This document shows positions 290 to 63,858 of a DNA stretch of 64,000 nucleotides, piece by piece. Both the position numbers and the translations under genes were made by a program. Positions within the stretch are counted from its first letter, which is position 1, and every line of letters starts with the position of its first letter. The stretch comes from a virus (Duplodnaviria; Caudoviricetes): positions 1-64,000 of the IMG/VR virus record IMGVR_UViG_3300032328_000581. One strand, 5' to 3'. The notes beneath the pieces are model-generated. The model saw nothing but the letters and a program-made list of their open reading frames with translations, did not search any database and was not told the DNA's origin.

Positions 290-788
290 AAAGAAAACAA
301 CACCCCGCAAAGTAAATGAATTGATTGCAGAAGAGTTGGAAGAAATTAATTCAAACCCTGAAGTAATCAAAGACTCTAAAGCCAAGTTAGACAACGTGCC
401 AGAGGTCGAATTAGATCCGGTTACTAAGCACGAGGATGAGGCTATTAAGTTAGCCAACTCCAACACAAACAAACGGGGCTCCAGGGATAGTTATCACCCA
501 TTAATGGAAGCCTTTCAACGACATAAGTTACTTGCTGAAGGACAATACACCATCTCCAGTGACTTAATGAGAAAAGAATCAGGATACATCTTAGGGTGTA
601 AAACAGACAACACAGCCTTCCTCGTTGTTCAAGACTTTGACACATCTTGCCTAGTCAGGCTTGACGTTAAAGACTTAGAAAAGCTAAAGTTCCACATTGA
701 CGACGTATTAGTTGAGATGGGGCTTACAGCAATAGGCGTTAAATCAGAAAATGCCCACATGTGGCGCACAGCAAAACGATCAAAATAA
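282..788 (+). CDS. Hypothetical protein
   Basis: 168-aa ORF overlapping the upstream stop; on the coding strand of this block. Confidence 0.7.
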   Translation: MVKKKTTPRKVNELIAEELEEINSNPEVIKDSKAKLDNVPEVELDPVTKHEDEAIKLANSNTNKRGSRDSYHPLMEAFQRHKLLAEGQYTISSDLMRKESGYILGCKTDNTAFLVVQDFDTSCLVRLDVKDLEKLKFHIDDVLVEMGLTAIGVKSENAHMWRTAKRSK

Positions 789-800
789 GGAGATGATCCA

Positions 801-1016
801 ATGAAAGAACGGTTACACAAGGCAATTCCAGTATGGCTATATTGGAAACTTCCACTTAAAGCACAGATATGGCTAGCAGATTACCCTAGAAATCCTAACG
901 TAATTGTTGGTAGGTATTTTCAAGCCAAAAATGGTCAGTTTAAATGGAAAAACTCTTATGAGCCTAAACAAGACTGGCACCATACGGGCTTGTTCTCAAC
1001 AAGAGAGGATCGATAA
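801..1016 (+). CDS. Hypothetical protein
   Basis: 71-aa ORF with RBS AAGGAG. Confidence 0.7.
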   Translation: MKERLHKAIPVWLYWKLPLKAQIWLADYPRNPNVIVGRYFQAKNGQFKWKNSYEPKQDWHHTGLFSTREDR

Positions 1017-1171
1017 TGCCTGAAGATCAAGATAAAAAAGATATAGATATTGACGCAATGCTTAAAGATCTAAATATAGTAATGGCTTCTCTTGCAGAGC
1101 ATATTGAATTACTGCAGGAGCAGGTCGCTACTATAGTTAGTGATGTAGAGAAGTTTAAAGATTCACTATAA
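1016..1171 (+). CDS. Small coiled-coil hypothetical protein (51 aa, MPEDQDKKDIDIDAML...)
   Basis: Read by hand; TAATG coupling with the upstream ORF; RBS GAGGA. Confidence 0.65.
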   Translation: MPEDQDKKDIDIDAMLKDLNIVMASLAEHIELLQEQVATIVSDVEKFKDSL

Positions 1172-1203
1172 AAACACCGGCCAACACAAACATTCGCTGG
1201 CCC

Positions 1204-1277
1204 GCGCTGTTAGCTCAGTTGGTTAGAGCCCCGAACTCATAATTCGGTCGTCGTAGGTTCAAGTCCTACACAGCGCA
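1204..1277 (+). tRNA. tRNA with CAT anticodon (elongator Met or lysidine-modified Ile2); CCA not encoded
   Basis: Acceptor GCGCTGT/ACAGCGC, D-arm GCTC/GAGC, anticodon arm CCGAA-CTCATAA-TTCGG, T-arm GTAGG-TTCAAGT-CCTAC, discriminator A; no initiator hallmarks. Confidence 0.93.
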
Positions 1278-1302
1278 CGGCGCACTCTAGAAGGAGGAGT
1301 GT

Positions 1303-1395
1303 CTTTGGTCTGACGAGACCTAAGGTAAAACACGTCCCGTAAGCATCGGGGTATATCTGCTTCCTGTCCTGAGCATGACAAGGCTAAACTGCTCA
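1303..1395 (+). ncRNA. Three tandem H-type pseudoknot units
   Basis: Each unit is a stem whose loop pairs downstream after a TAWAWC/TAAAC linker (GACG/CGTC, AAGCA/TGCTT, GAGCA/TGCTC). Confidence 0.6.
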
Positions 1396-1418
1396 TTACC
1401 CATGCCCAAGGAGGTTGC

Positions 1419-1736
1419 ATGACAAGAAAGAAAGAAAAATATACTCCTAGTCAATTTAGTAAGCATATGCCAACCCCTATTTATGACAATTGGGCGTGGC
1501 AAGAAAAAGGCTTATGTAATGACTTAAAAAATACAGAAATCTTCTTTTATGAGGAGCAAGAGAGGGGGCCAGACAAAGAAAAGCGTATTAGTCTGGCTGT
1601 AGCCTGTTGCAATGCGTGTCCTGTAATTGAAGCCTGTAGACAGTTTGCTTTAGATACCCATCAAGATTACGGTGTCTGGGGAGGACTAACGGAGGAACAA
1701 AGGTTAGCAATTAGGCGCAAAACAAAAGTAGGATAA
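1419..1736 (+). CDS. whiB: WhiB-family Fe-S transcription factor (WhiB3/WhiD-like)
   Basis: WAWQEKGLC...IFF...CNACPV...C...YGVWGGLTEEQR; RBS AGGAGG. Confidence 0.92.
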   Translation: MTRKKEKYTPSQFSKHMPTPIYDNWAWQEKGLCNDLKNTEIFFYEEQERGPDKEKRISLAVACCNACPVIEACRQFALDTHQDYGVWGGLTEEQRLAIRRKTKVG

Positions 1737-1745
1737 GGAGGAACC

Positions 1746-2420
1746 ATGATTACAAAAGATCAACTCCTGGAACAAAACCGCGATCGTAAATGTCACGATT
1801 TTGATTCGGCAGTAGACTATTTAATCGGCGGTAAAAACCCTGAGTTATATCGCCCATTATATGACAGGGGGCTGGTACTTAGAAGAATTGACGATACAAC
1901 TATGGCAATTACTTTTACTCACCAAACTTCGTTTCAATTAGTTACTTACAAACCAAACGGCGTTGTTATATTGCCATCATTGTACGGGTATCACAGAGTA
2001 AGACCTGCTACCCGAAGAGCAATGGCAAATTATGCAAACCTTATAGGCATAGACTACAAAAAGCGAAAGTATTACATACACAGGCAAATTGATCCAAAGA
2101 AACCTATAAAGTTTAGGCGCTGCACCTCGTGTAGTGGGCAAGGCTTTAATATAATTACTTGCAATGGTATAGACGGTTATAAAGAAGTAACCCAATTCAG
2201 TGGAAAAAGCATAATGCTGCGAGTCATATGCACTATGCCAGAAGAAGATGTCAATCGTTATAGCAATCACAGAGAAAAACAAACGTGTGCATACTGCACC
2301 GCAGGAAAAGTTCAGGTGGGTGGTAAATCCATACCAACTGAGTGGGATGCACGAAAACCGTTACGACTAGATATTGTAACGGGGTACATCCTAGATGATG
2401 AGGAACCTACCGTAAGTTAG
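1746..2420 (+). CDS. Hypothetical protein with DnaJ-like CxxCxGxG zinc-finger motifs
   Basis: CTSCSGQG and CAYCTAG; RBS AAGGAGG. Confidence 0.65.
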   Translation: MITKDQLLEQNRDRKCHDFDSAVDYLIGGKNPELYRPLYDRGLVLRRIDDTTMAITFTHQTSFQLVTYKPNGVVILPSLYGYHRVRPATRRAMANYANLIGIDYKKRKYYIHRQIDPKKPIKFRRCTSCSGQGFNIITCNGIDGYKEVTQFSGKSIMLRVICTMPEEDVNRYSNHREKQTCAYCTAGKVQVGGKSIPTEWDARKPLRLDIVTGYILDDEEPTVS

Positions 2421-2581
2421 GCTGTCTCTGGAAAACGGCAATACTTAGGATCCAGTCATAGCAGCTCTGGTGCTATCAATAAAGTGGTCATGTCTGATAT
2501 CGGTGAGACTTTATTTTTAAATCCAGTGACTATAGCGTGGAGCGAGGCCTCTGCATGACCCTAGTATCTAAATTCGACAGT
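2421..2581 (+). ncRNA. Candidate rod-like structured RNA (about 160 nt)
   Basis: Nested helices GCTGTC/GACAGT, ATACT(T)AGG/CCTAGTAT, GTCAT(A)GCAG/CTGCATGAC, GTGCTAT/ATAGCGT, AATAAAGT/ACTTTATT. Confidence 0.45.
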
Positions 2582-2592
2582 AAATTTATTGT

Positions 2593-2640
2593 AGGTGAAA
2601 GACCGGCGTGTCTGCTATCGGCGCCGGTCTTTCTCCTTTC
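2593..2640 (+). terminator. Terminator-like hairpin
   Basis: GAAAGACCGGCG/CGCCGGTCTTTC 12-bp stem followed by a pyrimidine run. Confidence 0.6.
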
Positions 2641-2641
2641 A

Positions 2642-2683
2642 GTGCTACAGGGCTATTGACAAGTTCGATTCTTGTCTAGCACA
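2642..2683 (+). ncRNA. tRNA-like minihelix (acceptor stem plus T-arm)
   Basis: GTGCTA/TAGCAC stacked on GACAAG-TTCGATT-CTTGTC, with a canonical T-loop. Confidence 0.45.
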
Positions 2684-2745
2684 CTAGCCGGTAAAACGGT
2701 GAACTGCACATTCGGTGCAGTAATAAACTGAAAGGGAAAAGGCAA

Positions 2746-4170
2746 ATGAATATAGCGATGTTCGTAGAGACCTATGAGCCATCGATGAGCGACAGCAAGC
2801 GTCAAATACTTGTTGTTCCACATGATGGCAGTGCTCGTGTATATACAAGACTAACTGACGGAGTTACCGGCAAACGCTGGGACGAAGTGACAGTTAGCGA
2901 ACTGTATACAGCTATGTCTCCTAATGAATTCCTAACTGTTCAGCCTGTTGGTATCCACGTCACTTCAGCAGACGAAGAGGCTATCCGTGAAAACGGCTGG
3001 TCTCCAGTATTGTCTACCAAGGCAATGGCTGCTTATGACAAGGCTCCAAAGGATGAAGAGTTCGGTTCAGTACAACAACGAATCAATACTCTTATTGATA
3101 GAGTTGCAGTATGTGATCCGACATTGGAAGACTATGTTACTGATTTACGACGCCAAAGAGATGGTTCTTCTATTGAGACGCCATTCATTACACAGCCAAC
3201 ACAAACATCCGAGTCAGCATCTACTGACGAGGAAGACTTGAGTGAAGAGATGGTTAATTCATCTGGCAATCTCAAGATCGCCCTGGCAAGTATTCCCCCA
3301 ATTGAATACGCAAACAAGTATGTTAACCGCAAACTAACGGGTAATGTTCTTGACTTTACAGTATTCGATTATGCGCGAGCCACAAAGCGAGAAGTTCTTA
3401 TCTACGGCCCTACCGGTCCTGGTAAGACAACATCTATTGTTGCGTGGGCTGCTAAAAATCAACTGCGTCTTGCAGCTGTGTCCGGCAATGCTGCTCTCGA
3501 GCCAAGCCAACTAATCGGTAAATATGTACCGGATGGTAACGGCGGCTTCGAGTGGATTGACGGCCCAATTACTGACGTAGTTCGTAATGGTGGCGTTCTT
3601 ATTCTCGATGAGTTGAACTTCATCTCACCAAAAATCTACACAATTCTCTATTCACTCCTTGACGGACGACGTTGCTTGATTCTATTGGATCATCACGGCG
3701 AGACTATTCAAGCTCATCCAGACTTGACTATCTTTGCCACCATGAATCCAGAGTATGTCGGTACTACGCCTCTCAACTTTGCGATGCGTAACCGCTTTAG
3801 CGTTCAAATCCCTTGGGATTATGACGACGACGTAGAAGCACAGCTAATCAAGTCAAAAGCACTTCTTGTAATTGCTAAGCAGTTACGTACAGAAGCAGCT
3901 AAAGGTGAGTTCGAAACTCCTATCTCAACTAATATGTTGATGGAGCTAGAGCAAATCATTCCGTTTAATTATGAGTTTGCTATTGCTAACTTCGTTGCAC
4001 ACTTCGATAAAGAAGAGCAAGAGAAGGTTGCACTAGTTCTTATGACTCATGATTTTAACATCAAGGAAGACTTCAAGTTAAATGAAGTTACTCCAAGTGA
4101 ATTAACAGACGGTGTAGAGAGTATCAGCGAAGAAGTTGATGCTTGGCTACAATCAAAGAACACGAACTAG
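2746..4170 (+). CDS. MoxR-type AAA+ ATPase (CbbQ/NirQ/CobS-like)
   Basis: Walker A GPTGPGKT, Walker B LILDELN, sensor ATMNP, arginine finger MRNRF, ISTxxL. Confidence 0.9.
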   Translation: MNIAMFVETYEPSMSDSKRQILVVPHDGSARVYTRLTDGVTGKRWDEVTVSELYTAMSPNEFLTVQPVGIHVTSADEEAIRENGWSPVLSTKAMAAYDKAPKDEEFGSVQQRINTLIDRVAVCDPTLEDYVTDLRRQRDGSSIETPFITQPTQTSESASTDEEDLSEEMVNSSGNLKIALASIPPIEYANKYVNRKLTGNVLDFTVFDYARATKREVLIYGPTGPGKTTSIVAWAAKNQLRLAAVSGNAALEPSQLIGKYVPDGNGGFEWIDGPITDVVRNGGVLILDELNFISPKIYTILYSLLDGRRCLILLDHHGETIQAHPDLTIFATMNPEYVGTTPLNFAMRNRFSVQIPWDYDDDVEAQLIKSKALLVIAKQLRTEAAKGEFETPISTNMLMELEQIIPFNYEFAIANFVAHFDKEEQEKVALVLMTHDFNIKEDFKLNEVTPSELTDGVESISEEVDAWLQSKNTN

Positions 4171-4184
4171 AATAGGTAAAAGAC

Positions 4185-6164
4185 ATGCCGTATCAAGATA
4201 CTACAATATCAAAAAACGGTGCTGCTCGCGAAGAGGCAATGCAGATGAGAGCTTTACAGTTGTCTGCATTGTCTCGAGTATACGAAGGTGCTGACCGAAT
4301 TCTGACAGGTGATCCAATCAACGTTCATGTTGTAGAGGATGGCCCAGCAGTAACCTGGTCTGATGGTGAGAATATCTACATCAATCAAAAGCACATCGGC
4401 GAGATATCCCTTGAAATGCTGACTAAAGTTTCTGGTTTAAACTACCACGAGCTGGCCCATCATTTCTACACGCCCCGCGAAGGAACTACGCTGTTGAAGT
4501 ATGTAATAGAGCAAGGTTACTATACATCCTTTAACATCCTGGAGGATCAACGCATCGAGTCTTTACTCTGTGCTAGATATCCCAGTGTTAGTCCGTATCT
4601 TCAATCTGCTGCCTTAATTTGGCTGCAGACTTCCCCCGAAGCTGCGTTCACTAACTATCCTCTTATCGCTGGTCGTAGGCATATCAACGTAAAAATACGC
4701 GAAGCATTTCGGGACTTGTTTTACAAGCCTGAACTAATCCCCGATATTCAACGAATCACAAATGAGTATCGGTGCTTAGCATTCCCTAGGGACTACAAAC
4801 GAGCAGAAAAACTAATCAAGGAGTTCCACGAATTGATTATCTCACAAATGGATATACCACCTCAGTGTGGTCTTGGCAGCTGTGATGCTCGTTCGCCAAT
4901 CAAAAAAGGTAGACCTGAACCAGGTAAAGCCCAAGAACGTGACGCACGAGTTGCTTCTACGATGGGTAAGCCTGAGTCATTCTACATACCTAAGGAGCCG
5001 TTAGAACAATCGCAACAGGGATCTCAACCAAACGAACAAGGTTGTTTCCCTGGCGAACCGCACAACAGTGGTCCGCAAAAAGGTGAGTCTGTAGAAGGTG
5101 AAGGAACCAGCAATGGTTCTACCCCACCAACACAAACACACACTGAAGTATCTATGACTCAAGAGGAGATGCTACAAAAGCGCGAAGAAAAACTAGAAAA
5201 GCCAACTCAACTCAATACCTGGGGTAACTCTCACGTTAAGAGCCAAGGTGGTTTACCTAAAGATCTTAACACGCTCTTGGAGAATGACATCCAATCAATA
5301 TACGACCGCAAGGATGTTATTAAAGATGTCAAACGCAAGCAGAATATTATCGTTCACGGTGATGAAAACTGGGATGATAACTCTGCTCTTGGTAAGTTCT
5401 CTGATGCACCAGTTCCTGCCAAAGCATTACTTGACTATCGTAGGTTTGCAAATGAACTACGTAAGTTAAAGGATGACTCTGAGCCGGCCTGGGAAAGAGA
5501 GACAGTTGCTGGCAAAATCAATATGCCTCGCGTTATGCGCGGGTGTGATATTGACAAGTCATTCGACTCATGGTCTACAGGAGACGACTCAACTAATATT
5601 GAAGCCGTCATTTTAATCGACCGGTCATCTTCAATGAGCTCAGGCGCTAATGACAAAAAAGCATCAGTAGCATGCTGGACTGTTAAGCGTGCCTTGGAAA
5701 GCATTGACTGTTCTGTAACGGTCTATGCCTTTGATGATAAGAACGAGATAGCCTACAGAAAGCAAGATAAAGCAGGGCGCACCACATACAAGTTCATCCA
5801 CGGCCAAGGCGGCACAGACCCATACGAGTCTTTGCTCCTATCCGAGAAGACTTTTATGATGTCTACTCGCCCAAATAAAATGTTGTTCTTAATTACTGAC
5901 GGTCAGTTTGACAGTAAGCAAAACAACCCAGTTATTGAGCGACTAGCTAAACGTGGTGTGCTAACAGTCATGGTGTTGATTATGGACGAGAGTTCATACA
6001 ATGACGCTGTTACTAGAAACAATATGGCTCAAAGTCTTAGAGACAAAACTGACTTTAGCCATGGAGCCGAACTGTTTGCGCGAGTAAACGGTGGCAAAGA
6101 TCTACTACAACTTGCCAAGTCGGTAGTTGTAGGCGCAATTAAAAAGCGCAGACTAAATAACTAA
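4185..6164 (+). CDS. vWA-domain partner of MoxR with an N-terminal HExxH metallopeptidase-like domain
   Basis: YHELAH plus FNILEDQRIE at the N-terminus; MIDAS elements LIDRSSSM, GGT and LITDG at the C-terminus; low-complexity linker. Confidence 0.88.
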   Translation: MPYQDTTISKNGAAREEAMQMRALQLSALSRVYEGADRILTGDPINVHVVEDGPAVTWSDGENIYINQKHIGEISLEMLTKVSGLNYHELAHHFYTPREGTTLLKYVIEQGYYTSFNILEDQRIESLLCARYPSVSPYLQSAALIWLQTSPEAAFTNYPLIAGRRHINVKIREAFRDLFYKPELIPDIQRITNEYRCLAFPRDYKRAEKLIKEFHELIISQMDIPPQCGLGSCDARSPIKKGRPEPGKAQERDARVASTMGKPESFYIPKEPLEQSQQGSQPNEQGCFPGEPHNSGPQKGESVEGEGTSNGSTPPTQTHTEVSMTQEEMLQKREEKLEKPTQLNTWGNSHVKSQGGLPKDLNTLLENDIQSIYDRKDVIKDVKRKQNIIVHGDENWDDNSALGKFSDAPVPAKALLDYRRFANELRKLKDDSEPAWERETVAGKINMPRVMRGCDIDKSFDSWSTGDDSTNIEAVILIDRSSSMSSGANDKKASVACWTVKRALESIDCSVTVYAFDDKNEIAYRKQDKAGRTTYKFIHGQGGTDPYESLLLSEKTFMMSTRPNKMLFLITDGQFDSKQNNPVIERLAKRGVLTVMVLIMDESSYNDAVTRNNMAQSLRDKTDFSHGAELFARVNGGKDLLQLAKSVVVGAIKKRRLNN

Positions 6165-6178
6165 AGGGAGGTAAAGCA

Positions 6179-6637
6179 ATGTTTAGAGAAATTCTAGACA
6201 AGGCGTTAGGAAAAGACGCTGCAAAAGCAGACATAGCGCAGATGATTGTATTGATTGATTACAAGCCAGTCTTCTGTGACTATGCCAACTTTACAAAGTA
6301 TGATCCTGATTGGTGGCTTGAGTTAGCGGACGATGTAGTTAATAACTCCTCTAACCCAGACTTAGCCTTGGGTCTATATGCTATCGCAGCTTCTCAATAC
6401 TTCTTTGATGGCGAATACCGCAGTAGTAGTCGCTGTAAGGAAGCGTTGATGCGCGGCATGTCACTACGAAAAGAACATCCAGTTCTTATCACAATTGGCA
6501 AAGCCACAATGCTAAGCGAAATGTCTGACGGTGAGGCTGAAATGCCTACCCGCAAGGAAGTAGCTGCGGGTGGTCTGGCCTCTGCTATACAGAATCTCGA
6601 GATGTTCGAGCAGCTAGTATCACAGGACAAAGATTAA
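6179..6637 (+). CDS. Hypothetical protein
   Basis: 152-aa ORF with RBS GGGAGG. Confidence 0.75.
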   Translation: MFREILDKALGKDAAKADIAQMIVLIDYKPVFCDYANFTKYDPDWWLELADDVVNNSSNPDLALGLYAIAASQYFFDGEYRSSSRCKEALMRGMSLRKEHPVLITIGKATMLSEMSDGEAEMPTRKEVAAGGLASAIQNLEMFEQLVSQDKD

Positions 6638-6639
6638 TC

Positions 6640-6891
6640 ATGAGTTACATAGCTCTTGATCTTCTAACGCAAGAATGCGTTGGACCATTTGATACTGAAG
6701 ACCAAGCGCTTGCCTTCTCAATGGAGGCAAGCGATTGGCTTAATGAAAGGGGACTAGTCTTTGATATACACCAAGCGTGTAGCCCAACAGAGTGGTTCTT
6801 AAATAACACATCTAAAACTATAGAGGAGGTAGATGATGGCATCAGCAACCAAGAAGATAGAAACAGCGCCGTTCTTAGTTCGTCGAGTTAG
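6640..6891 (+). CDS. Hypothetical acidic protein
   Basis: 83-aa ORF in the operon. Confidence 0.65.
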   Translation: MSYIALDLLTQECVGPFDTEDQALAFSMEASDWLNERGLVFDIHQACSPTEWFLNNTSKTIEEVDDGISNQEDRNSAVLSSSS

Positions 6892-7399
6892 CGTACTAGA
6901 AAAGCTAAAAGCAAACAAAGAATGGTTAGAAGAATCCCACCTAAAGGTTAGGGATAATCCAGCAACTGAAGAAACGGTTAGTGCTAAGACAGCAGTGACC
7001 TGGGCTAAAGCTAACTGGGAAGATGTGCTTAAAGCACTGACCAAGTCTCATAAAAATGGAACGCTAGAGTTTAGCTACCATCACCACAGAAACTACGGCG
7101 ACCCAGACAGCCCTATTGAGGTACTGATATATCTACACGAAGTACCTACTTACCCCTATAGAAAAGACAGCACCAACACAAACATCCAGGAACTTAACGA
7201 AGCAATAAAGCAGGCTTTTGTTTCTTATACTGATAATAAAGGGGTAGCCACCCCAAGTACATATCAAAAAATATGTCAGTATGTTGCGTTGTTTGAGCAA
7301 TCAACCGAGGAATTTATAGACGCAAAGTTCTACAGTGACTTGCCTACGTTAATTCCTGACTTTAAAGAACAGTTCAATACCGTACAACAAATTAAATAA
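6833..7399 (+). CDS. Hypothetical protein
   Basis: 188-aa ORF with RBS GGAGG (start probably 6836). Confidence 0.75.
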   Translation: MMASATKKIETAPFLVRRVSVLEKLKANKEWLEESHLKVRDNPATEETVSAKTAVTWAKANWEDVLKALTKSHKNGTLEFSYHHHRNYGDPDSPIEVLIYLHEVPTYPYRKDSTNTNIQELNEAIKQAFVSYTDNKGVATPSTYQKICQYVALFEQSTEEFIDAKFYSDLPTLIPDFKEQFNTVQQIK

Positions 7400-7408
7400 G
7401 GGGGAAAA

Positions 7409-7681
7409 ATGCACAATCACGATGATGAAGATGATGAAGATGACTTCTCATTATCTAGCTTAACTGATCTGAACCTAGATTATGATATCTCAAAAGTACC
7501 TGGACCGTTCAAATCTCTTGCACTAGAGCAGATTTGCGCAATGAATAATTTCCTGGTTAACTCACTTGAAGAAGAGGGTAAGTTAATGGAAATGCTGACA
7601 TGGTCAAGTGAGAGGATTAAATCTTACGAGACCGCAATCATACAAAAACACAAAGCCGAGAGGGGCATAGACGATGAGTAG
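7409..7681 (+). CDS. Hypothetical protein with an acidic N-terminus
   Basis: 90-aa ORF containing DDEDDEDD. Confidence 0.7.
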   Translation: MHNHDDEDDEDDFSLSSLTDLNLDYDISKVPGPFKSLALEQICAMNNFLVNSLEEEGKLMEMLTWSSERIKSYETAIIQKHKAERGIDDE

Positions 7682-8354
7682 CAACGTCAACTTTGACGAC
7701 GAAAAAGAAAGAGAAGAGCAACGACGTCACAATCAGATGGTTATTGATAGGCATTCTGATTATGACTGTAAGAATCAGTTAGTTATGATCGGCTCAGCTG
7801 CCGACGTTGACTTAGTAATACAATACCTATCTGATGGTTCCAAGGCCCTAAGCTTCAACAAAGTTAAGCCTGTGCCTGATGAGCTAAAGACGTTCAATCC
7901 ACTAAACATAAAGCCGAGTGTCCTAGAAAAATACAAAGCTTTAGATTCGTATACCTTCAAAGAAGAACACTGGACTACCCCTAAAGAACCAGTTAATATT
8001 CAAGTAGCAACTCATATGCTTACCGAAGGTGTATTAACCGGTCTTCCAATGAAAATTAGAACAGACCTCAAACCTGAAAAGATAGCGGTATTTGAATTTG
8101 ATACTTGCATCAAACCACCAAGCGGAATCTATCACAAAATGAGCATTGACTTTCCAAAGATCATGTTTCATTACAGCTTCGACATTGAAGCTCCTTCAGA
8201 AAACACATGCGGCTGGGCTATTGGGATGGCGGGCGAGATTAAAAATCGTGGCCAATACGACAGTAGCTTCAGAGAAATTAGTCTTCATCTCGGCAAATTC
8301 AAAGATCTATGGTTGGATTTGTCAGATGGAGGTGATGCTAACGAAAGGGAGTAA
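7674..8354 (+). CDS. DUF1281/YubB ferredoxin-like domain protein
   Basis: CxNxLxxxG, FxKxxPxPxEL, W-T, FDTxxxPP and FPxxxFxYxF pattern. Confidence 0.6.
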   Translation: MSSNVNFDDEKEREEQRRHNQMVIDRHSDYDCKNQLVMIGSAADVDLVIQYLSDGSKALSFNKVKPVPDELKTFNPLNIKPSVLEKYKALDSYTFKEEHWTTPKEPVNIQVATHMLTEGVLTGLPMKIRTDLKPEKIAVFEFDTCIKPPSGIYHKMSIDFPKIMFHYSFDIEAPSENTCGWAIGMAGEIKNRGQYDSSFREISLHLGKFKDLWLDLSDGGDANERE

Positions 8355-8357
8355 TCT

Positions 8358-8549
8358 ATGGCAATGGTAAAACTTCAAATAACGTTTGAAGTATGCGTAT
8401 ACGAAGGACGTATAGAACCACCCTATGCTGCAGAGCATAACTGGGATCTATGGTTCTATGACCAATTCATACGTACCGCGCTTAATGATGAGTATCTTCG
8501 CCCGGGTGAGTACATCAAAGTACTCGAATGCGAAGAAGTCCCCGAGTAA
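8358..8549 (+). CDS. Hypothetical protein
   Basis: 63-aa ORF with RBS GGGAG; ends just before a terminator. Confidence 0.65.
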   Translation: MAMVKLQITFEVCVYEGRIEPPYAAEHNWDLWFYDQFIRTALNDEYLRPGEYIKVLECEEVPE

Positions 8550-8560
8550 CACACCAACAC

Positions 8561-8610
8561 AAACAACCCCGCAAGGTATCCAGAAAAATACCTTGCGGGG
8601 CTGTTTTTCT
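8561..8610 (+). terminator. Rho-independent terminator
   Basis: CCCCGCAAGGTAT/ATACCTTGCGGGG 13-bp stem followed by TGTTTTTCT. Confidence 0.85.
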
Positions 8611-8677
8611 CTCGACAGAGATACTCTCTTCAGAGTGTCATAACTATATCACAAGAAAAGAAAGGAGGAAACCACCC

Positions 8678-8929
8678 ATGCAACTTTACTTTGCAGCACT
8701 TGCACTTAAAGATAAAAACATGAAAAAGTTGGTGAGAGCCCTGCAAAAATCCGGCTTTTCAGTAACTGTAACTACACGAGGTCACGTACGTGTATTTAAC
8801 AAAGAAACAAACCAGCAAGTAATCTTATCTTCAGGTAGAACTAAAGATAGAAGAACTATATTAGAAATAAGAAAAAACCTAAAAGACATCGGCTATGACG
8901 CTAAAAAAGATGGCGTCAGTATAGGATAA
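8678..8929 (+). CDS. HicA-like (dsRBD-fold) RNase/toxin-like protein
   Basis: LxxxGFxVxxTxRGHVRV pattern; start reassigned to ATG 8678 after RBS AGGAGG; no adjacent HicB seen. Confidence 0.55.
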   Translation: MQLYFAALALKDKNMKKLVRALQKSGFSVTVTTRGHVRVFNKETNQQVILSSGRTKDRRTILEIRKNLKDIGYDAKKDGVSIG

Positions 8930-8933
8930 AAAT

Positions 8934-9050
8934 ATGAGCATATTGTTTATATGTCTAAACTGTGCAGGAGATTCTTATGAAGAACCGCACAAAGAAGAAC
9001 AAGTTCGTATGGTAACTTCTTGCCCAGATTGTTGGAGTCAAAATGGTTAA
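8934..9050 (+). CDS. Small zinc-ribbon protein (38 aa)
   Basis: Read by hand; CLNC and CPDC. Confidence 0.55.
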   Translation: MSILFICLNCAGDSYEEPHKEEQVRMVTSCPDCWSQNG

Positions 9051-9498
9051 TACATTTCTACCATTCTCAGACTACGATAAATCAGCAGAAGCCTTGGACA
9101 TAAAACGACTTGGAAAACAACGAGTAGAAGCCTTACAAATACTTAAAGCTAACTTAGGTAAAACCCAAGGTTGGAGAAACCACCCAGCTGCTGTAATGTG
9201 GCGCGGATATGAAGGACAACTTTACTTTTATATACGAGCCATCTGCTATCGGTGGACTAAATTAGGTTATCAAGATACTTGTTTACAGCAAGCAAAAGAA
9301 CTTGCAAAAGAAATACCAAGCGATAGGTTCCAACGACCTTGGTGGTTAGGTAAACGAGGATTTCACCGAAGCCACAGATCAAATCTAAAAAGAAAAGACA
9401 GCAACCACTACAAGTTTCCTGTGCCAGATGACTTACCTTATCTGTGGCCCAGGGAAGATGGCAAGTCCCTAACCCCAGTTAAAAAGAAAGGAGAGTAA
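9043..9498 (+). CDS. Pyrimidine-dimer DNA glycosylase-like protein (MSMEG_6728/DenV family)
   Basis: TFLP...LDxKRLGKQRVEALQIL...HPAAVMWRGY...PWWLG...HRSHRSNL. Confidence 0.88.
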   Translation: MVNTFLPFSDYDKSAEALDIKRLGKQRVEALQILKANLGKTQGWRNHPAAVMWRGYEGQLYFYIRAICYRWTKLGYQDTCLQQAKELAKEIPSDRFQRPWWLGKRGFHRSHRSNLKRKDSNHYKFPVPDDLPYLWPREDGKSLTPVKKKGE

Positions 9499-9499
9499 T

Positions 9500-9733
9500 A
9501 TGAACGTTGAAGTTATCGTAAAAAAAGTTGAGTTCTACTCTATGTTGCTTGAAGATGTTTCATCTATAGGGCTTCAAGAAGAGATACAAGACAGAATAGA
9601 CGCCGGAGAATACGGCGATCTAAGAAAGAACGAAGGCTGGACAATGATACATTCAGTAGATAACTACGATACGGGTGAGCCTATGAAGCTTATCCAGAAC
9701 GGAGAACAAGAAGATGAGCAACTTTACAGTTGA
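9500..9733 (+). CDS. Hypothetical protein
   Basis: 77-aa ORF with RBS AAGGAG. Confidence 0.7.
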   Translation: MNVEVIVKKVEFYSMLLEDVSSIGLQEEIQDRIDAGEYGDLRKNEGWTMIHSVDNYDTGEPMKLIQNGEQEDEQLYS

Positions 9734-10007
9734 AAAAGCGGTAATTAAGTTACCAGCAGGGTATGTAGGGTTCTGTATTTGCGGCAATTACCTTACCTAC
9801 CCAGATGAATATATAGACGGGGTTCAATGCCACGCCTGTTATATCTTTGATAGGGATCCAACAGTCCACATATGTGATCACTGTAGCTTTGTAGATGAAG
9901 CTTTCTTTGTATTCACCGATGAAGACGGAGATGAAGAAGTTGTATGCCTTGAATGCATACGATCAGAAGAACAGTACGAGTTTACAAATGAGGCAGTTCA
10001 TGCATAA
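9714..10007 (+). CDS. Cys-rich zinc-finger hypothetical protein
   Basis: CICG, CHAC, CDHC, CLEC. Confidence 0.7.
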   Translation: MSNFTVEKAVIKLPAGYVGFCICGNYLTYPDEYIDGVQCHACYIFDRDPTVHICDHCSFVDEAFFVFTDEDGDEEVVCLECIRSEEQYEFTNEAVHA

Positions 10008-10167
10008 ACATAAGTGGGAGTGGACGCCATTTTGGCACAGATATACTTGCCAATGTGGGAAAGCAAAGCCAATGAAATGTAAGGCAGCGGAAAAGATGGA
10101 GCCATGTGATTGCGATCTTCGTGCAGGAATGCCCCCCGGCACTGGGCGTAGATCGATGGTATTTTAA
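10000..10167 (+). CDS. Small Cys-rich hypothetical protein (MHKHKWEW...)
   Basis: ATG 10000 overlaps the upstream stop; CQCG and CDC. Confidence 0.55.
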   Translation: MHKHKWEWTPFWHRYTCQCGKAKPMKCKAAEKMEPCDCDLRAGMPPGTGRRSMVF

Positions 10168-10184
10168 TTAAAAAGTTTAAAAAG

Positions 10185-10233
10185 CAAACAATCCTTAACT
10201 TAAATTTGAGGGTTTTAAGTTAAGGATTGTTTG
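10185..10233. terminator. Bidirectional terminator / 20-bp perfect inverted repeat at the transcription convergence point
   Basis: CAAACAATCCTTAACTTAAA-N9-TTTAAGTTAAGGATTGTTTG between the convergent gene blocks. Confidence 0.85.
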
Positions 10234-10274
10234 TGTTGGCGGCGGCGGATACGTATGCCCAATCAGACTTAGGC

Positions 10275-10457
10275 TTATTCTTCGTCGTCGTCCCATTCAA
10301 TATCTTCAGCATCTTCGAGAAGTTCCTCTAAATCGTCATCTTCCCAGTCTTCAAAATCTTCGTCATCAATTTCTAAAGCAAAATCGACATCATCTTCCGG
10401 GCTAAGTTCTTTTGCAAAACTTTCGTCCCAATCAGGAAGATCTTTTTCATTAGACAT
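10275..10457 (-). CDS. Extremely acidic small protein (possible nucleic-acid mimic)
   Basis: More than half of the 60 residues are D/E; overlaps the RNR stop. Confidence 0.7.
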   Translation of the reverse strand: MSNEKDLPDWDESFAKELSPEDDVDFALEIDDEDFEDWEDDDLEELLEDAEDIEWDDDEE

Positions 10458-19316: not shown

Positions 19317-19678
19317 TACCAGAACCCTTGGCCTTGAGCATTTCTTAGCGTGCTTTCTGCGCTCGCGGTTCCGTAGGTGTCTGCTCGTAATGGGAAGCCA
19401 TTTGTATCCTCATTGACATGCATTACGTCTTTAATATTTAGTTCTCTAGACCTGTAACCAAAGCGTGGGGGAAATAGCTTGACCTGAGGTAAGTTTGGTC
19501 TAACAATCTCTTGAAGCACAGCTCCCGGAGTTGTAACTGACGCGAGGGCTCTAGAAATTAACGAATCTTGTACAGACTTGTATGGCCCTAAATAATCGTA
19601 GCGTGGCTCAACGTCATTTCTATCACCAACGATTGGCCGACCTTTAGTGTGATCATAGACTCCGTCTGCTGAATTCAC
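19316..19678 (-). CDS. Hypothetical protein
   Basis: 120-aa ORF with GTGA overlap. Confidence 0.7.
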   Translation of the reverse strand: MNSADGVYDHTKGRPIVGDRNDVEPRYDYLGPYKSVQDSLISRALASVTTPGAVLQEIVRPNLPQVKLFPPRFGYRSRELNIKDVMHVNEDTNGFPLRADTYGTASAESTLRNAQGQGFW

Positions 19679-20512: not shown

Positions 20513-20547
20513 AATGAAAATGGGGACAGAAACAGGTCTGTCCCCAT
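20512..20547 (-). terminator. Rho-independent terminator
   Basis: ATGGGGACAG/CTGTCCCCAT stem with a T-rich tail on the - strand. Confidence 0.75.
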
Positions 20548-20562
20548 AATCTTTTTAATTTT

Positions 20563-26565: not shown

Positions 26566-26838
26566 TTAGTTTACGCTAATTGTGAAAACAATGGCGCTAA
26601 TCTGACCATCTCTTGAGTCAACTGTGGTGAATCCAGGTCGGCATGTTAGATCTAATCCTCGAGGCGCAACGTAGCCTCGGGCAATAGCAATAGCTTTTAC
26701 AGCTTGATTTACAGCTGAAGCGCCTACAGCTCTAAGCTTAACTTGAGGAGATTCATATAGGGCGTGGGCAATTGCCGACCCTACGGATTGGGCGTTAGAT
26801 CCAGCCCCAACACGTAAAAAACTTTCTTCTTCTGACAC
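26566..26838 (-). CDS. spoVS: SpoVS-family (Alba-like fold) protein
   Basis: LRV...SVGSAIA...AVGASAVNQAVKAIAIARGYVAPRGLDL...PGF closely matches the SpoVS consensus. Confidence 0.9.
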   Translation of the reverse strand: MSEEESFLRVGAGSNAQSVGSAIAHALYESPQVKLRAVGASAVNQAVKAIAIARGYVAPRGLDLTCRPGFTTVDSRDGQISAIVFTISVN

Positions 26839-28820: not shown

Positions 28821-29135
28821 TTATTTTTCCTTCTCCTCTAGCCATTTTTCCAAGGTATATCCCATTTTAGTGTACTTACGCTTAAGCGCATTTCGTTCTC
28901 TGTGACTCATTCCGCCAAAGATACCATGAAGCTCATCGTTCTTAATAGCCTCTTTGAGGCACTGTTTTCTTACAGGGCAGGGGGGTCTGCCATCTCTACC
29001 GTAACAAATTGCTTTAGCTGAATCAGCTATGGGTTTGTATAACTTCTTATCCCTTGGGGGAAAAAAGATCTCAGTGTCTTCTCCTCGACACTTTGCTTCA
29101 TATCTCCAAGCCCAAGACGGGTTGTTTTCTGACAA
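28821..29135 (-). CDS. whiB: WhiB-family transcription factor
   Basis: WRYEAKC...IFFP...C...CPVRKQC...GIFGGMSHRER. Confidence 0.9.
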   Translation of the reverse strand: MSENNPSWAWRYEAKCRGEDTEIFFPPRDKKLYKPIADSAKAICYGRDGRPPCPVRKQCLKEAIKNDELHGIFGGMSHRERNALKRKYTKMGYTLEKWLEEKEK

Positions 29136-34109: not shown

Positions 34110-34574
34110 TTAGTTGGTTTCGTTTTCATGAATCTTAGTCCAGTTTTCCAATAGTTCTATTGAAAGATCTGGATGTCGATTCCAATCAATCCGCTTAGAG
34201 TCTATAAGGCCCCGGGATTGAAAGCTTTGTATTGTGGACTCAATAATAGCACGACTATACATTCGCCACCCAGGTTTTTTCTTACCGTCTACGACGATAG
34301 ATCTAAGCCTGTATGGAGCCCGAGGAATGTAGCCTTTGCGTTCCCATAGACGTATGGTTACTAGCGGCCTCTTTAATGCCTCACAGAGAGACCCCGCGCT
34401 ATAAAGCTCGATGGTCTTCCCATTTGGAAGCGTCTTTACCTGAGGTTTGCTTTCCCAAGAGTCTTTAGGTTCAACTTTCTTTTTAGCAGGATCGACTGAT
34501 TTACGTTTACGCTTTGATCCGGGGTAATAATCCCCTAACCCATTAAACATAGAATCAATAATATCGTCAGCCAT
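34110..34574 (-). CDS. MerR-like HTH DNA-binding protein
   Basis: YSAGSLCEAL...TIRLWERKGYIP...RMYS; start at MADDII. Confidence 0.75.
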   Translation of the reverse strand: MADDIIDSMFNGLGDYYPGSKRKRKSVDPAKKKVEPKDSWESKPQVKTLPNGKTIELYSAGSLCEALKRPLVTIRLWERKGYIPRAPYRLRSIVVDGKKKPGWRMYSRAIIESTIQSFQSRGLIDSKRIDWNRHPDLSIELLENWTKIHENETN

Positions 34575-34576
34575 TT

Positions 34577-34744
34577 TTAAATATTTTTCCTTAAACGACG
34601 CTTTGACATTGGTAGTTCTATTTGTACAAAGAAAAATAGTAAATCTAAAGAACACTGAATGCTAGAAATAAATATTCCAAGCCCAATGCTTTTCTTGTAA
34701 AACCCGTACTGTACCCATACGTCGCCAATTCTAATTTCTTTCAT
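34577..34744 (-). CDS. Small hydrophobic hypothetical protein (55 aa)
   Basis: Read by hand (MKEIRIGDVWVQYGFY...); fills the gap between neighbours. Confidence 0.5.
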   Translation of the reverse strand: MKEIRIGDVWVQYGFYKKSIGLGIFISSIQCSLDLLFFFVQIELPMSKRRLRKNI

Positions 34745-35257: not shown

Positions 35258-35401
35258 TTATTGGCGGACGTAGTCCTTCAAGGCGGAAACAATCACGTCT
35301 GTAACTGTACGGCCCTCTATAGCGGCCTTTTCTTTAACGGCAGACCAAAGCTCAGGGGCTACCCGTATTGTGCGGGTAGGGGTTTTAGGTAGATTAGGCA
35401 C
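35258..35401 (-). CDS. Ribbon-helix-helix DNA-binding protein (47 aa)
   Basis: Read by hand: MPNLPKTPTRTIRVAPELWSAVKEKAAIEGRTVTDVIVSALKDYVRQ; GTG start; RBS AAGGAG. Confidence 0.8.
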   Translation of the reverse strand: MPNLPKTPTRTIRVAPELWSAVKEKAAIEGRTVTDVIVSALKDYVRQ

Positions 35402-41559: not shown

Positions 41560-42235
41560 TTCTTCTCCGATCTCCTTTTGGAGCATTTACAACTAAGGGT
41601 ATAAACGCTTCGTGTATAAAACTGGACATAGGCTCACCATACACAGTTTCCCAATCTTTTGTCGGAACGTTTGTTGTAATTATCGTTGGCAAGCCCGAAT
41701 TAAATCTAGAGCGCAGAAGGGCGTCAAAGGTATTCTCAGCCCATCCGGTAGCAGTCCGGTACTCCTTGCCTAGGTCGTCCAACACAAACAGCTGTAGGTT
41801 CTCTACAGGGCTTAGATCCCCAAAGATTGCATCTATCTCTCTTTGGTCTGATTCGTTCTCTTCATCCCACTGAGCCTTCTGAGTACGCAAAAGCTTTGGA
41901 TAGTCCATAAAAGCCCCCAGGCGAGGAGGTAGGGCTTCCGTTGGGCCGTATAAACGATCGGGAATGGCCCTAATAAGGCTTTGAAGGGCCACAGAAGCTA
42001 TCGTGGTCTTTCCGTGACCCGGTTTACCTACTAAAAGGATGCCAAGGCCGCAGATAGGGGATCCAGGGGTTCTAATGACCTTTCCAGATAGAACTGACTC
42101 CGTCCAAGCCATGACCTGGGTTTTGGTGTCAGAGTCGTCTAAGTCTGAGAATTCCATACCTAGGGTTTTTACTGGAACACCTGAACGGCTAAGGCGACTT
42201 CTAGTGCTTGGGCGTTCTTGGCTAAGGTCGTACAT
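41546..42235 (-). CDS. DnaC/IstB-like AAA+ helicase loader
   Basis: GKPGHGKT, LFVLDDLGKE and R...LPTIITTN. Confidence 0.88.
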   Translation of the reverse strand: MYDLSQERPSTRSRLSRSGVPVKTLGMEFSDLDDSDTKTQVMAWTESVLSGKVIRTPGSPICGLGILLVGKPGHGKTTIASVALQSLIRAIPDRLYGPTEALPPRLGAFMDYPKLLRTQKAQWDEENESDQREIDAIFGDLSPVENLQLFVLDDLGKEYRTATGWAENTFDALLRSRFNSGLPTIITTNVPTKDWETVYGEPMSSFIHEAFIPLVVNAPKGDRRRNEKE

Positions 42236-47446: not shown

Positions 47447-48994
47447 TTAGATGTTAATTCCGCCAGATACCGTGATTAACAGGTTAGCTGGAATCAGGTA
47501 CGGAATTTGGTTTGGGTCTAGGATTATGTCTTGGGCGGAAGATCCGCCGTCAACGTTTAGCTTTGTTACCGATACTGAGGTTATGCCAGTTAACGGAGAC
47601 AATGCTGAGATAATTGAAGAAAGGGATATATTTCTAGCGAACGTATTTTTTTCATAGGAGAAAAGTCCGGTATCACCAGAAAGAAGCGCCTTGTACACAT
47701 CTAAACGCGCAGTACTTTGCTTATACGTGTCCTTTATTAAGACAGTGACTTCTAATCGCAACGGCATGTATTGTGGGGGCAATACGTTTAGGGTTACGCC
47801 TACAGGGATTTTGTCATCCATATAGAGCTCTACGTCTCTTTTAAGGCTGGTCCAAGAAGGAGTTACAGCTCCTGAAATTATGCCCGGGGTAGCGCTACCA
47901 TCATTTTGTACTTGAAGGTATACGTTAACTAAAGAGTACACTGAGGAAGCGGCGTTTGTCTTTCCTACTAAAGGAACTAGTGATGAAAGGTACTTGTAAT
48001 CATTTAGGGTTACCGCACGGTTTCGTGAAATAATAGCGTTTTTAATTTTAGATCTAATTTGTGTTTGGCTATCTGCGTCCGCACCTCCGGTTGCGGCTGT
48101 AGCATTGTTTACAGTAAAGAATGAAACTGCTTCTGGATCAATATTTCCAGGAATAAATGAAACTTCACTTACTGCTCCTGAAATTACGTTTCCATAACGA
48201 CCTACGCTGATCTTGTAGGTTGCGCTAATAGCCTGTGAAGCAGGTGGGATAGACCCATTAATTCCGTCACCAAAAAGTACGTTTAGAGTTCCATCTGTAT
48301 TTTGGTTTGCTGTAAATACCAAGTCATTTGGACCATACTCTACAAGGTTATCTACATACTGCCAAGGCGCAAATGCGACTCCCTGTCCTACGTAAACAAC
48401 TAGAGACGCGTCAATAATTCCGCTTTCAAGAATTTGAAAAGACTGGTTAGCGCTTCCAGTTGACGTACCAATACTAGAAGGCAGTGGTTTATGAAATACG
48501 GGATCAATATAGTCTTCTTTATCAGTGTTTACTGTTTTTCCCTCAACACAAACAACGTTTACTGTAGCATTTGGTGCAATTGCTGTAAAAGGCTGGGTAG
48601 TTTCAAAGTATGCTTGAGAAAAAGGTCCGTAGTTTAACGGAGCCATTACTTGAGTTCCGACAGGCAAACTTATTGGGGCATCGCTGTCATTTGTAAAGGA
48701 CACGGTTACAGTGGCCGGGGTTGGACCTGAAGGGCGATACCCATATAAAGATGCAAAATTTAACAGGGTTTCTGTTTTTACAGCGGTTTCTACCTGAGTT
48801 TCATTAGCAACTCGGTCAATGTAATAGGACATAATGTCCCCCATATAAGCAAAAGCTTCTAGCAAAGCATTTCCTAGGTCCGAAGGGTCGTTAGGATTCC
48901 AAGCGCCGCCTGTTTTTAGGTTTACTAGGCTTATTAATTCGTTTTTTAGGGCTGCGTAATCCCTAGAAGTGTAGTCAATTTGAATTTCACTCAT
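47447..48994 (-). CDS. Baseplate wedge protein (T4 gp6/gpJ-like)
   Basis: IDYTSRDY, LLEAFAYMGD, FGDG, GGAD and RAVTLNDY. Confidence 0.9.
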   Translation of the reverse strand: MSEIQIDYTSRDYAALKNELISLVNLKTGGAWNPNDPSDLGNALLEAFAYMGDIMSYYIDRVANETQVETAVKTETLLNFASLYGYRPSGPTPATVTVSFTNDSDAPISLPVGTQVMAPLNYGPFSQAYFETTQPFTAIAPNATVNVVCVEGKTVNTDKEDYIDPVFHKPLPSSIGTSTGSANQSFQILESGIIDASLVVYVGQGVAFAPWQYVDNLVEYGPNDLVFTANQNTDGTLNVLFGDGINGSIPPASQAISATYKISVGRYGNVISGAVSEVSFIPGNIDPEAVSFFTVNNATAATGGADADSQTQIRSKIKNAIISRNRAVTLNDYKYLSSLVPLVGKTNAASSVYSLVNVYLQVQNDGSATPGIISGAVTPSWTSLKRDVELYMDDKIPVGVTLNVLPPQYMPLRLEVTVLIKDTYKQSTARLDVYKALLSGDTGLFSYEKNTFARNISLSSIISALSPLTGITSVSVTKLNVDGGSSAQDIILDPNQIPYLIPANLLITVSGGINI

Positions 48995-63517: not shown

Positions 63518-63858
63518 GCTGTTATTTGACTCCCAAACGCGTGAAAGGTAATAGATGAGGATGTTCCTGTAGCCACAGTAATTGTGTCATATGGGGCTAG
63601 GGTTATTCCAAGAGTAAATGTTTGTGTTGTGTTGCCTGCAATAGGTACAGTTAAAGCTAGTGCGTTTCCTGTGCTAGCTACAGCTGGGGTTGTACCGGTA
63701 GCCTTGCGAACATAAATAGTCGCAGTTGCTAGGGTTGGCGTCACATTGGCTACCGCAATAGTTGAGACAATAGTTTGGGTAGCTGCAGGGCTAGAGTATA
63801 GATCTAGGTTTGAACCGGATGGTGTAGCCTGTCCAAGAATGAGATAATTTGTAGGCAT
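63514..63858 (-). CDS. Virion structural protein (small beta-sandwich)
   Basis: YLILGQ..P, LY..P...TIVSTI.VAN and FHAFGSQI. Confidence 0.65.
   Translation of the reverse strand: MPTNYLILGQATPSGSNLDLYSSPAATQTIVSTIAVANVTPTLATATIYVRKATGTTPAVASTGNALALTVPIAGNTTQTFTLGITLAPYDTITVATGTSSSITFHAFGSQITA

Follow-up and report, generated by a model that had tools for sequence, protein, structure and literature searches.

The 64,000-nucleotide (nt) window analysed here comprises positions 1 to 64,000 of the IMG/VR record IMGVR_UViG_3300032328_000581, a virus of the Caudoviricetes (Duplodnaviria) whose whole record of 98,886 bp is referred to below as G000. A 12-base word, CCAACACAAACA, occurs in this window in eight exact copies, seven on the plus strand and one on the minus strand. 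A preliminary description of the window, made from its letters alone, had placed these copies at 460, 1181, 3196, 5127, 7173, 8554 and 41779 (+) and at 10228 (-), and all of them were found where it had put them. The whole record holds ten exact copies, of which two lie beyond the window at 96952 and 98060. It also holds six copies with one mismatch (48543, 53633, 63619, 77370, 86050 and 95139), where about 0.4 would be expected. Several sites are kept in G001, a relative that is 96% identical. The sites in the window, and the tRNA gene that one of them adjoins, are as follows.

460..471, plus strand: exact CCAACACAAACA inside a 168-amino-acid (aa) open reading frame (ORF), codon offset 1 (S-N-T-N-K); kept in G001 at 87202
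1181..1192, plus strand: exact CCAACACAAACA, intergenic, with a stop codon 9 nt before it and tRNA-Met 11 nt after it
1204..1278, plus strand: tRNA-Met (CAT), immediately 3' of the 1181 copy
3196..3207, plus strand: exact CCAACACAAACA in the linker of a MoxR-type AAA ATPase gene (P-T-Q-T, aa 151-154)
5127..5138, plus strand: exact CCAACACAAACA in the linker of a VWA-domain gene (P-T-Q-T)
7173..7184, plus strand: exact CCAACACAAACA inside a 188-aa ORF, codon offset 1 (T-N-T-N-I); kept in G001 at 80333
8554..8565, plus strand: exact CCAACACAAACA, 4 nt past the stop of gene 8358-8549, adjoining a terminator
10228..10239, minus strand: exact CCAACACAAACA, inverted, at the 3' end of a long minus-strand operon, with a hairpin next on its own strand
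41779..41790, plus strand: exact CCAACACAAACA, antisense to the DnaC/IstB-like loader gene; kept in the 96% relative G001 only
48543..48554, plus strand: variant TCAACACAAACA, antisense to the baseplate wedge gene
53633..53644, minus strand: variant CCGACACAAACA, sense, in a 978-aa tail/lysin gene; the orthologous place in G001 (32440) has the canonical word
63619..63630, minus strand: variant ACAACACAAACA, sense, in a 114-aa ORF; kept in G001

Sites are concentrated in a plus-strand block of about 14 kb, which runs from about 94957 via the record end to 10167 and in which they are spaced 0.7-2.5 kb apart. The homologous block genes are contiguous in G001 (77342-91394), and the record ends of G000 are therefore arbitrary. 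Nine of the 15 sites of G000 fall within 14% of the genome, one copy (95139) standing at the head of the block, and in the relative G007 all six sites are in the block or at its end. The block contains small ORFs of no assigned function, the tRNA-Met, a WhiB protein, a zinc-ribbon protein, the MoxR-type AAA ATPase, the VWA protein and a DenV-type glycosylase. Its layout suggests that it may be expressed early.

The abundance of the word is far above expectation. In dinucleotide shuffles of the window, exact copies averaged 0.00 (8 observed) and copies within one mismatch 0.25 (11 observed), and CCAACACAAACA is the most over-represented 12-mer of the genome, with nine occurrences on one strand where the next unrelated word has three. 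When synonymous codons were permuted within each gene over the full genome, so that proteins and per-gene codon usage were kept, 0.2-0.6 exact copies were expected per genome; the four complete genomes contain 10, 11, 6 and 6. The frequency is not explained by background, and a chance origin of the word is excluded.

Conservation in relatives points the same way. We recovered nine relatives via the ATPase (52-96% identical among them), and all nine carry CCAACACAAACA or one of its close variants, CCGACACAAACA and CCGCAACAAACA, in the same block. The preliminary description had read SNTNK at 460, TNTNI at 7173 and PTQT at both 3196 and 5127, and had placed the conservation at the level of nucleotides. 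Its frames are correct, and both the codon-preserving shuffles and the differing frames among lineages bear out the claim. In the ATPase, the word lies in the variable linker that joins an N-terminal extension to the AAA core. Genomes G000 to G003 have it exactly, as CCA ACA CAA ACA (P-T-Q-T), between unrelated flanks; it is shifted by a few codons in L035 and L032, stands in frame 1 in L034 (A-D-T-N-K) and is spelled CCGCAACAAACA in L036. Among the other 22 invariant Pro/Thr/Gln columns in the alignment of these nine ATPase genes, none holds a single codon throughout. The VWA gene carries the word in frame 0 in G000, G001, G002 and L034, and in frame 1 in L035, L032 and L036. Both are long genes without intergenic space, and in both the word is placed in linkers. 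Intragenic sites overall are split between frame 0 (17) and frame 1 (18). Because the same linkers hold the word in different frames across lineages, selection acts on nucleotides.

A single exact copy was also seen in G006, a distant 135-kb phage that carries a MoxR ATPase (about 29% identical, lacking the N-terminal extension) and has no further copy anywhere in its genome. It covers ATPase codons 6-9 (M-T-T-I-N-P-T-Q-T; L057:9749-9760, also L060:5034 and L062:7446) and falls at the same ATPase junction as in the array-bearing clade. This copy could be an ancient gene-start site, or a chance match on the shared PTQT peptide.

The boundaries of the word are sharp on its 5' side, where the copies share no sequence, so that the unit is a 12-mer. 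Among the 96 occurrences of ACAAACA in the four complete genomes, the preceding letters are CCAAC in 33, TCAAC in eight, CCGCA in five, and ACAAC and CCGAC in three each, so that the word is fixed at positions 2 and 6-12 and accepts a few alternatives at 1 and 3-5. The dominant spelling varies by lineage: G007 has mostly CCGACACAAACA, and G008 mostly CCGCAACAAACA. The word consists of two tandem hexamers, CCAACA and CAAACA, and one of its strands is made of A and C only, as would be the case for about 1 in 1000 random 12-mers. On the 3' side the word has a statistical extension: 58 of 68 non-redundant sites carry A or T at +13, and T or C is usual at +14. From +15 to +23 the sequence is rich in C and G and poor in T, CC, CG and GC being enriched three- to four-fold.

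The copies almost always follow the direction of transcription, as the preliminary description had proposed. In the four genomes taken together, 38 sites have the same sense as the gene in or beside which they lie, six are antisense, and another eight occur at convergent boundaries, each immediately past the 3' end of a gene that shares its strand. Of the 28 intergenic copies, 27 point the same way as an adjacent gene, and none opposes both neighbours. The polarity of the word is thus real, intergenic DNA included. About half of the copies are inside ORFs. The intergenic ones begin 0-15 nt past a stop codon, and what comes next is a Shine-Dalgarno sequence with a start codon, tRNA-Met or a hairpin. 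The 1181 copy sits, as had been noted before, in a GGCCA...TGGCC stem-loop ahead of the tRNA-Met. CCAACACAAACA also lies 7-12 nt 5' of tRNA-Met in G001, G003 and L010, with diverged spacers, and this distance is seen in two diverged lineages. In every relative, several copies point along the block and one inverted copy stands just beyond it, at the end of the converging ribonucleotide-reductase operon; the equivalent inverted copy that closes the block was found in G001, G002, G003, G007, G008, G009 and G010. The antisense copies number 4-6, against about 0.3 by chance, an excess that is not predicted by a signal acting on RNA only.

Two terminators in the window adjoin copies of the word.

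8567..8600, plus strand: strong bidirectional intrinsic terminator with a 13-14 bp stem (8 GC pairs), adjoining the 8554 copy
10191..10227 (approximate ends), minus strand: AT-rich 14-bp hairpin, a bidirectional terminator at the convergence point (-24.4 kcal/mol)

These are the terminators that the preliminary description had seen next to the 8554 and 10228 copies, and both adjacencies were confirmed (the hairpin at 10228 being of -24 kcal/mol). The broader claim, that the array is coupled to terminators, stands for some copies and does not hold generally, as other copies follow stop codons or lie in linkers. A hairpin of at least -20 kcal/mol in strength lies within 45 nt downstream of 7 of 72 non-redundant sites, compared with 0.7% of control windows, and an equally strong one lies upstream of 0 of 72; the median downstream folding energy equals that of controls. 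In G000, the word adjoins three of about six strong terminators, a count drawn from the strongest hits of a genome-wide scan: the two above and 86017-86049, which is outside the window. All of these are bidirectional terminators, in which the 3' half of the word is paired with the T-rich tail and its complement provides a tail on the other strand; at 8567-8600, the T/G-rich tail on the opposite strand is formed by the reverse complement of the word. Coupling to terminators is thus real, for a subset of sites.

A further strong bidirectional terminator (20519-20548, 12-bp stem, kept in G001) marks another strand switch without any copy of the word, which indicates that not all unit ends use it. 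Beside the 8554 copy, a 133-aa ORF with a weak HicA-like/phrog_2089 match (8528-8929, +) spans terminator 8567-8600. Its G001 orthologue is only 84 aa, so the true start is probably past the terminator; since the ORF probably begins there, the 8554 copy is intergenic. On the far side of the convergence point, the gene at 10275-10457 (-) encodes a 60-aa protein with 33 Asp/Glu and 2 Lys/Arg residues, which is 100% identical in G001. This gene ends the minus-strand operon and is followed immediately by the inverted copy and its terminator; a DNA mimic or anti-restriction-like function is possible for the protein.

The virus itself is a myovirus in which tail sheath, baseplate wedge, portal, large terminase and a virion structural protein can be recognised. 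Also encoded are PolA, an SNF2 helicase, a DnaG-type primase, DnaB, a DnaC/IstB-like loader, RecA, class II ribonucleotide reductase, a Cas4-type exonuclease and two Holliday-junction resolvases. There are two WhiB paralogues and a SpoVS homologue, and the WhiB proteins indicate an actinobacterial host. The nearest cultured phages are the Streptomyces Borockviruses, whose capsid protein is 72-74% identical. We found no phage RNA polymerase among the large proteins and no sigma region 2 in a six-frame search of the genome, so that transcription of the phage must fall to the host polymerase. The NusG domain (PF02357) was likewise found in none of the six frames. Nor did a tyrosine integrase turn up in the six frames, in a search that did not extend to serine integrases and partition systems. 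Judged by its gene content, the phage looks lytic, and a temperate life style would still be possible.

SpoVS (26566-26838, -) is 87-99% identical across the clade and 54% identical in Streptomyces phage BRock, and the second WhiB (28821-29135, -) is 84-98% identical across the clade, which places both among the most conserved proteins of the phage, level with capsid and terminase. In the block, an operon-like run at 1419-8549 (+) comprises WhiB, a zinc-motif protein, the MoxR ATPase with its 150-aa N-terminal extension, the VWA protein and six acidic proteins of no assigned function, the unassigned proteins having no match in Pfam or PHROGs. This run may be a chaperone or remodelling module of the phage. 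The zinc-ribbon protein (1746-2420), which has two DnaJ-type CxxCxGxG motifs, may belong with the MoxR and VWA genes.

Conserved, polar and enriched in the block, the word is a genuine signal of directional control. A search of the literature brought up no comparable element, its only matches being incidental ones to primers, and megablast of the motif block against GenBank phages gave no match. The system accordingly appears to be undescribed, as the preliminary description had supposed. We tentatively favour, as a plausible reading that falls short of probable, the interpretation that the word is an asymmetric protein-binding site on DNA that acts on transcription elongation. A sequence-specific protein, most likely encoded by the phage, would bind it on double-stranded DNA inside transcription units and would affect the passing host RNA polymerase in an orientation-dependent manner. 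About nine sites span the 14-kb accessory block at one per 1-2.5 kb, an inverted site closes it where the converging operon ends, and the late genes hold sparse variants. Once made, the reader might keep the block silent or insulated and lend strength to the bidirectional terminators that end the units, the sign and timing of the effect being conjectural. The dominance of variant spellings in some lineages (G007 and G008) is what a phage-encoded reader would produce, and two tandem hexamers are what a two-domain monomer reading successive major grooves would call for. The lack of enrichment of the word in 401 sampled Actinomycetota genomes (see below) also supports this reading.

Such sites have a precedent in the stoperators of Cluster A mycobacteriophages, with which the preliminary description had already drawn a comparison that is apt in layout. 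A monomeric repressor with two DNA-binding domains reads more than 20 asymmetric 13-mers via successive major grooves (PMC9283540). Stoperators follow the direction of transcription, occupy promoters and short intergenic spaces, and halt elongation in their natural orientation only (PMC9283540). The array described here resembles those of L5 gp71, Bxb1 and TipsytheTRex (PMC9283540) in site size (12 versus 13 bp), asymmetry and copy number, in a density of about one site per 1.6 kb (compared with about one per 1.5-2 kb) and in its transcription-aligned orientation. Like stoperators, the intergenic copies of the word stand in short spaces just past stop codons, and some stoperators too lie inside genes, but here about half of the copies are intragenic. 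Both belong to actinobacterial phages that use the host polymerase, and the two-half-site shape of the word suits a two-domain monomer. The two differ in that their sequences are unrelated, the present sites concentrate in one 14-kb block whereas stoperators spread genome-wide, no gp71-like repressor was detected here (the fold comparison covered the MerR-like protein only), and a subset of the word copies adjoins bidirectional terminators.

Two conserved proteins encoded in the window were considered as readers, alongside SpoVS.

34110..34577, minus strand: MerR-type winged-HTH protein of about 155 aa from Met at 34577, a candidate reader only
35258..35401, minus strand: RHH protein of 47 aa, conserved in all four complete genomes, a candidate reader only

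The preliminary description had named these three and the HTH protein at 19675 as possible binders. The MerR-like, RHH and SpoVS proteins are conserved, but no evidence was found that connects them with the word. The HTH protein encoded at 19675 is a poor candidate, being absent from G002 and G003 and not conserved beyond G001. The MerR-like protein has an invariant HTH, and every array-bearing genome that is sufficiently complete encodes it, whereas G006 does not; its predicted structure has a mean predicted local distance difference test (pLDDT) score of 83. It is simply a core gene of the clade. No sequence match to it was found in PDB. Pfam and PHROGs searches of 20 block proteins gave no lead to a reader, and the zinc-ribbon protein gave none either.

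Several observations weigh against a stoperator-like DNA site. The phage candidates examined yielded no reader; the model of the MerR-like protein gave weak matches to MerR-family folds and did not match the solved stoperator repressor, and this protein did not co-vary with the spelling of the word among the genomes compared. Stoperators serve lysogenic silencing and immunity, and no tyrosine integrase was found in this phage. They also co-evolve with immunity repressors, whereas the word is near-invariant across a deep clade, in relatives whose proteins are 52-57% identical. Coding constraint may add to the polarity inside genes, given that antisense copies would encode C-L-C-W, V-C-V-G or F-V-L. 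Finally, a strand of A and C only would be more natural for a site on single-stranded RNA or non-template DNA, an argument that is weakened by the tandem-hexamer structure.

This last point leads to an explanation that we consider possible and nearly as likely as a DNA site, namely that the word is read as a single strand during transcription, on nascent RNA or non-template DNA, and recruits a factor that alters pausing, termination or read-through. An A/C-only strand cannot fold on itself or wobble-pair, and the predicted unpaired probability of the word is 0.66, against 0.45 in controls. Its sense polarity is strict, intergenic DNA included, and the intergenic copies 0-15 nt past stop codons would be in ribosome-free RNA; about half of the copies, however, are in translated ORFs, where ribosomes would sweep away an RNA-protein complex. 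The strong-hairpin subset (7/72), with about three of six strong G000 terminators bearing the word on their 5' side, and the C/G-rich tract at +15 to +23, as is found downstream of pause sites, would also fit. Yet the motif-then-hairpin arrangement is not general, the median folding energy being that of controls, and a copy just before the final convergent terminators would be odd for an antiterminator. Invariance across diverged phages fits a conserved host reader, while lineage-specific spellings argue against a fixed one, and antisense copies above chance are a further difficulty.

The ops element is read by RfaH on the non-template strand that a paused polymerase exposes, and boxA of lambda nut sites and rrn leaders is read by NusB/S10 on RNA. 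The ops and nut sites are few, promoter-proximal and in untranslated leaders, and boxA is constant across phages since it is read by the host. Like the word, ops and boxA are linear polar elements of 12 nt that lie in transcription units. They control termination over long operons, and the size and strand of the word would suit a 12-nt non-template element such as ops. They share no sequence resemblance with it. Here, 9-10 copies are spread over the block, half of them inside ORFs, and we found neither a general boxB-like hairpin nor a NusG paralogue in the phage. The consensus of boxA is UGCUCUUUA or CGCUCUUA, which a word without U or G does not match (PMC2724277). In mycobacterial rrn BoxC, which is bound by the KH domains of NusA, an AUA trinucleotide is critical (PMC2724277). 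The word thus resembles none of boxA, ops and mycobacterial NusA BoxC.

A mimic of the NusA BoxC was rejected, as the word has no U and AUA is impossible, and its matches in the host phylum show no rrn context. The folding statistics likewise led us to reject a general boxA-boxB-like module. The preliminary description had cited lambda nut and boxA as known RNA sites, but a nut-like architecture of boxA plus hairpin does not extend to the array as a whole. It is conceivable, although we regard it as rather doubtful, that the word is a new co-transcriptional signal, an A/C-only 12-mer read single-stranded by an unrecognised phage or host factor that reprograms the actinobacterial polymerase along the block and its terminators. 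If this were true, it would be an ops/nut-like elongation-control system unrelated to RfaH, N, Q or put, in an abundant clade of freshwater phages.

A third explanation, which we consider unlikely, is that the word is a polar DNA signal for replication or recombination, either a Ter-like fork barrier at the convergence point or a Chi-like site for the phage RecA, Cas4-type exonuclease or resolvase. Tus-Ter arrays and the Sal-box/TTF-I arrays that lie behind rRNA genes are asymmetric protein sites that work in an orientation-dependent manner and lie outside genes, at replication termini or unit ends. The present array shares with them asymmetric sites in opposed groups at a convergence zone, and many copies facing one inverted copy do resemble a fork trap. 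The sites here, in contrast, run through the genes of the block, and their orientation tracks every local change of gene direction, including at the sparse sites over 85 kb of minus-strand genes; no simple scheme with 14- and 85-kb arms predicts this pattern. The phage does encode RecA, a Cas4-type exonuclease, two resolvases, DnaB, DnaG and PolA, and the spacing of 1-2.5 kb is on the scale of Okazaki fragments. Chi and KOPS words, however, are 5-8 nt long and genome-wide, whereas this one is 12 nt long and restricted to the block, and it is not enriched in the sampled genomes of the host phylum. One segment of homology between G000 and G001 ends 3 nt before the 96952 copy, but this is the single breakpoint at a site.

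That breakpoint borders a hypervariable cassette (G000 96952-97575; L031:12952-13575), across which homology with G001 is interrupted from 3 nt before the copy up to 97575. The insert is specific to G000 and encodes an 88-aa HTH-like protein, whose ATG follows the word by 6 nt and has no Shine-Dalgarno sequence.

The word could also act on RNA as a processing or translation signal, that is, as a cleavage site in the polycistron or as a CA-rich enhancer near start codons; we think this improbable. Several copies do separate a stop codon from the Shine-Dalgarno sequence that follows (G002 57870, L014 9008, L035 10022 and L036 679) or stand right after an ATG (G000 95139, G003 17937 and G002 36187). 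The ATG that comes 6 nt after the 96952 copy has no Shine-Dalgarno sequence, copies precede tRNA-Met, and the word is predicted to be unpaired. A letter-perfect 12-mer would nevertheless be unexpected for an enhancer, and cleavage in the ATPase and VWA frames would destroy their messages. The distance to the start codon is highly variable, and the copies at final terminators have no downstream gene. Very improbable, in our judgement, is a recognition site for a site-specific nicking enzyme, as in T5-like and some Pseudomonas phages: a sharp-edged exact word with no 5' flank conservation and kb-scale spacing would suit it, but T5-type nicks lie on one genome strand, whereas these sites switch strand with gene direction, and no nickase was recognised among the annotated proteins.

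Other candidates were rejected. The word is not a promoter, as it has no -10/-35 partner at a fixed distance and no TANNNT, its flank is T-poor, and copies occur in ORFs and before terminators; nor was a phage polymerase or sigma factor detected. A Chi/KOPS-type or rrn word of the host is not supported, since it was not enriched among 401 sampled Actinomycetota genomes, in which 49 matches (about as many as for the reversed-word control) lay in unrelated contexts, the true host not having been identified. The role in ejection or DNA organisation suggested by the preliminary description is unlikely, as is one in packaging, because orientation is not uniform along the genome and copies flip with gene direction. 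Pairing with a phage RNA was discarded: complementary copies are limited to the inverted one at the terminator and two that lie antisense within genes, and no single guide could match both canonical and CCGCA variants. A recombination joint was set aside, as only one homology breakpoint coincides with a site.

In the cultured Borockvirus relatives, CCAACACAAACA is absent. Phage BRock (NC_048650.1) has a four-copy word of its own, ACAA-N8-9-GGTACAAACATYGGCTCTGTGCC, at 2537(-), 5016(+), 12570(-) and 12754(-). These copies are in the first 13 kb, mostly intergenic and near a strand switch, and the word shares only a ACAAACAT-CG core with the extended site of the present clade (for example L034:3276, CCGACACAAACATCGGC). 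Possibly the BRock word is a promoter.

Public freshwater metagenomes contain the clade in great abundance: the MerR-like core gene has 755 homologues at E<=1e-5, contigs of 97-107 kb carry many of these, and some identical proteins recur on 45-84 contigs. In bacteria, most of what is known of elongation control that depends on the orientation of arrayed asymmetric sites comes from a single group of temperate mycobacteriophages. A similar layout is found here in an unrelated, lytic-looking clade of 99-kb myoviruses that is very abundant in lakes. Exact, short and conserved, the word provides a clean probe for finding its reader and for testing control at the level of DNA against control at the level of the transcript, and the cultured Streptomyces relatives (Borockvirus), which share the candidate proteins, give an experimental entry point.

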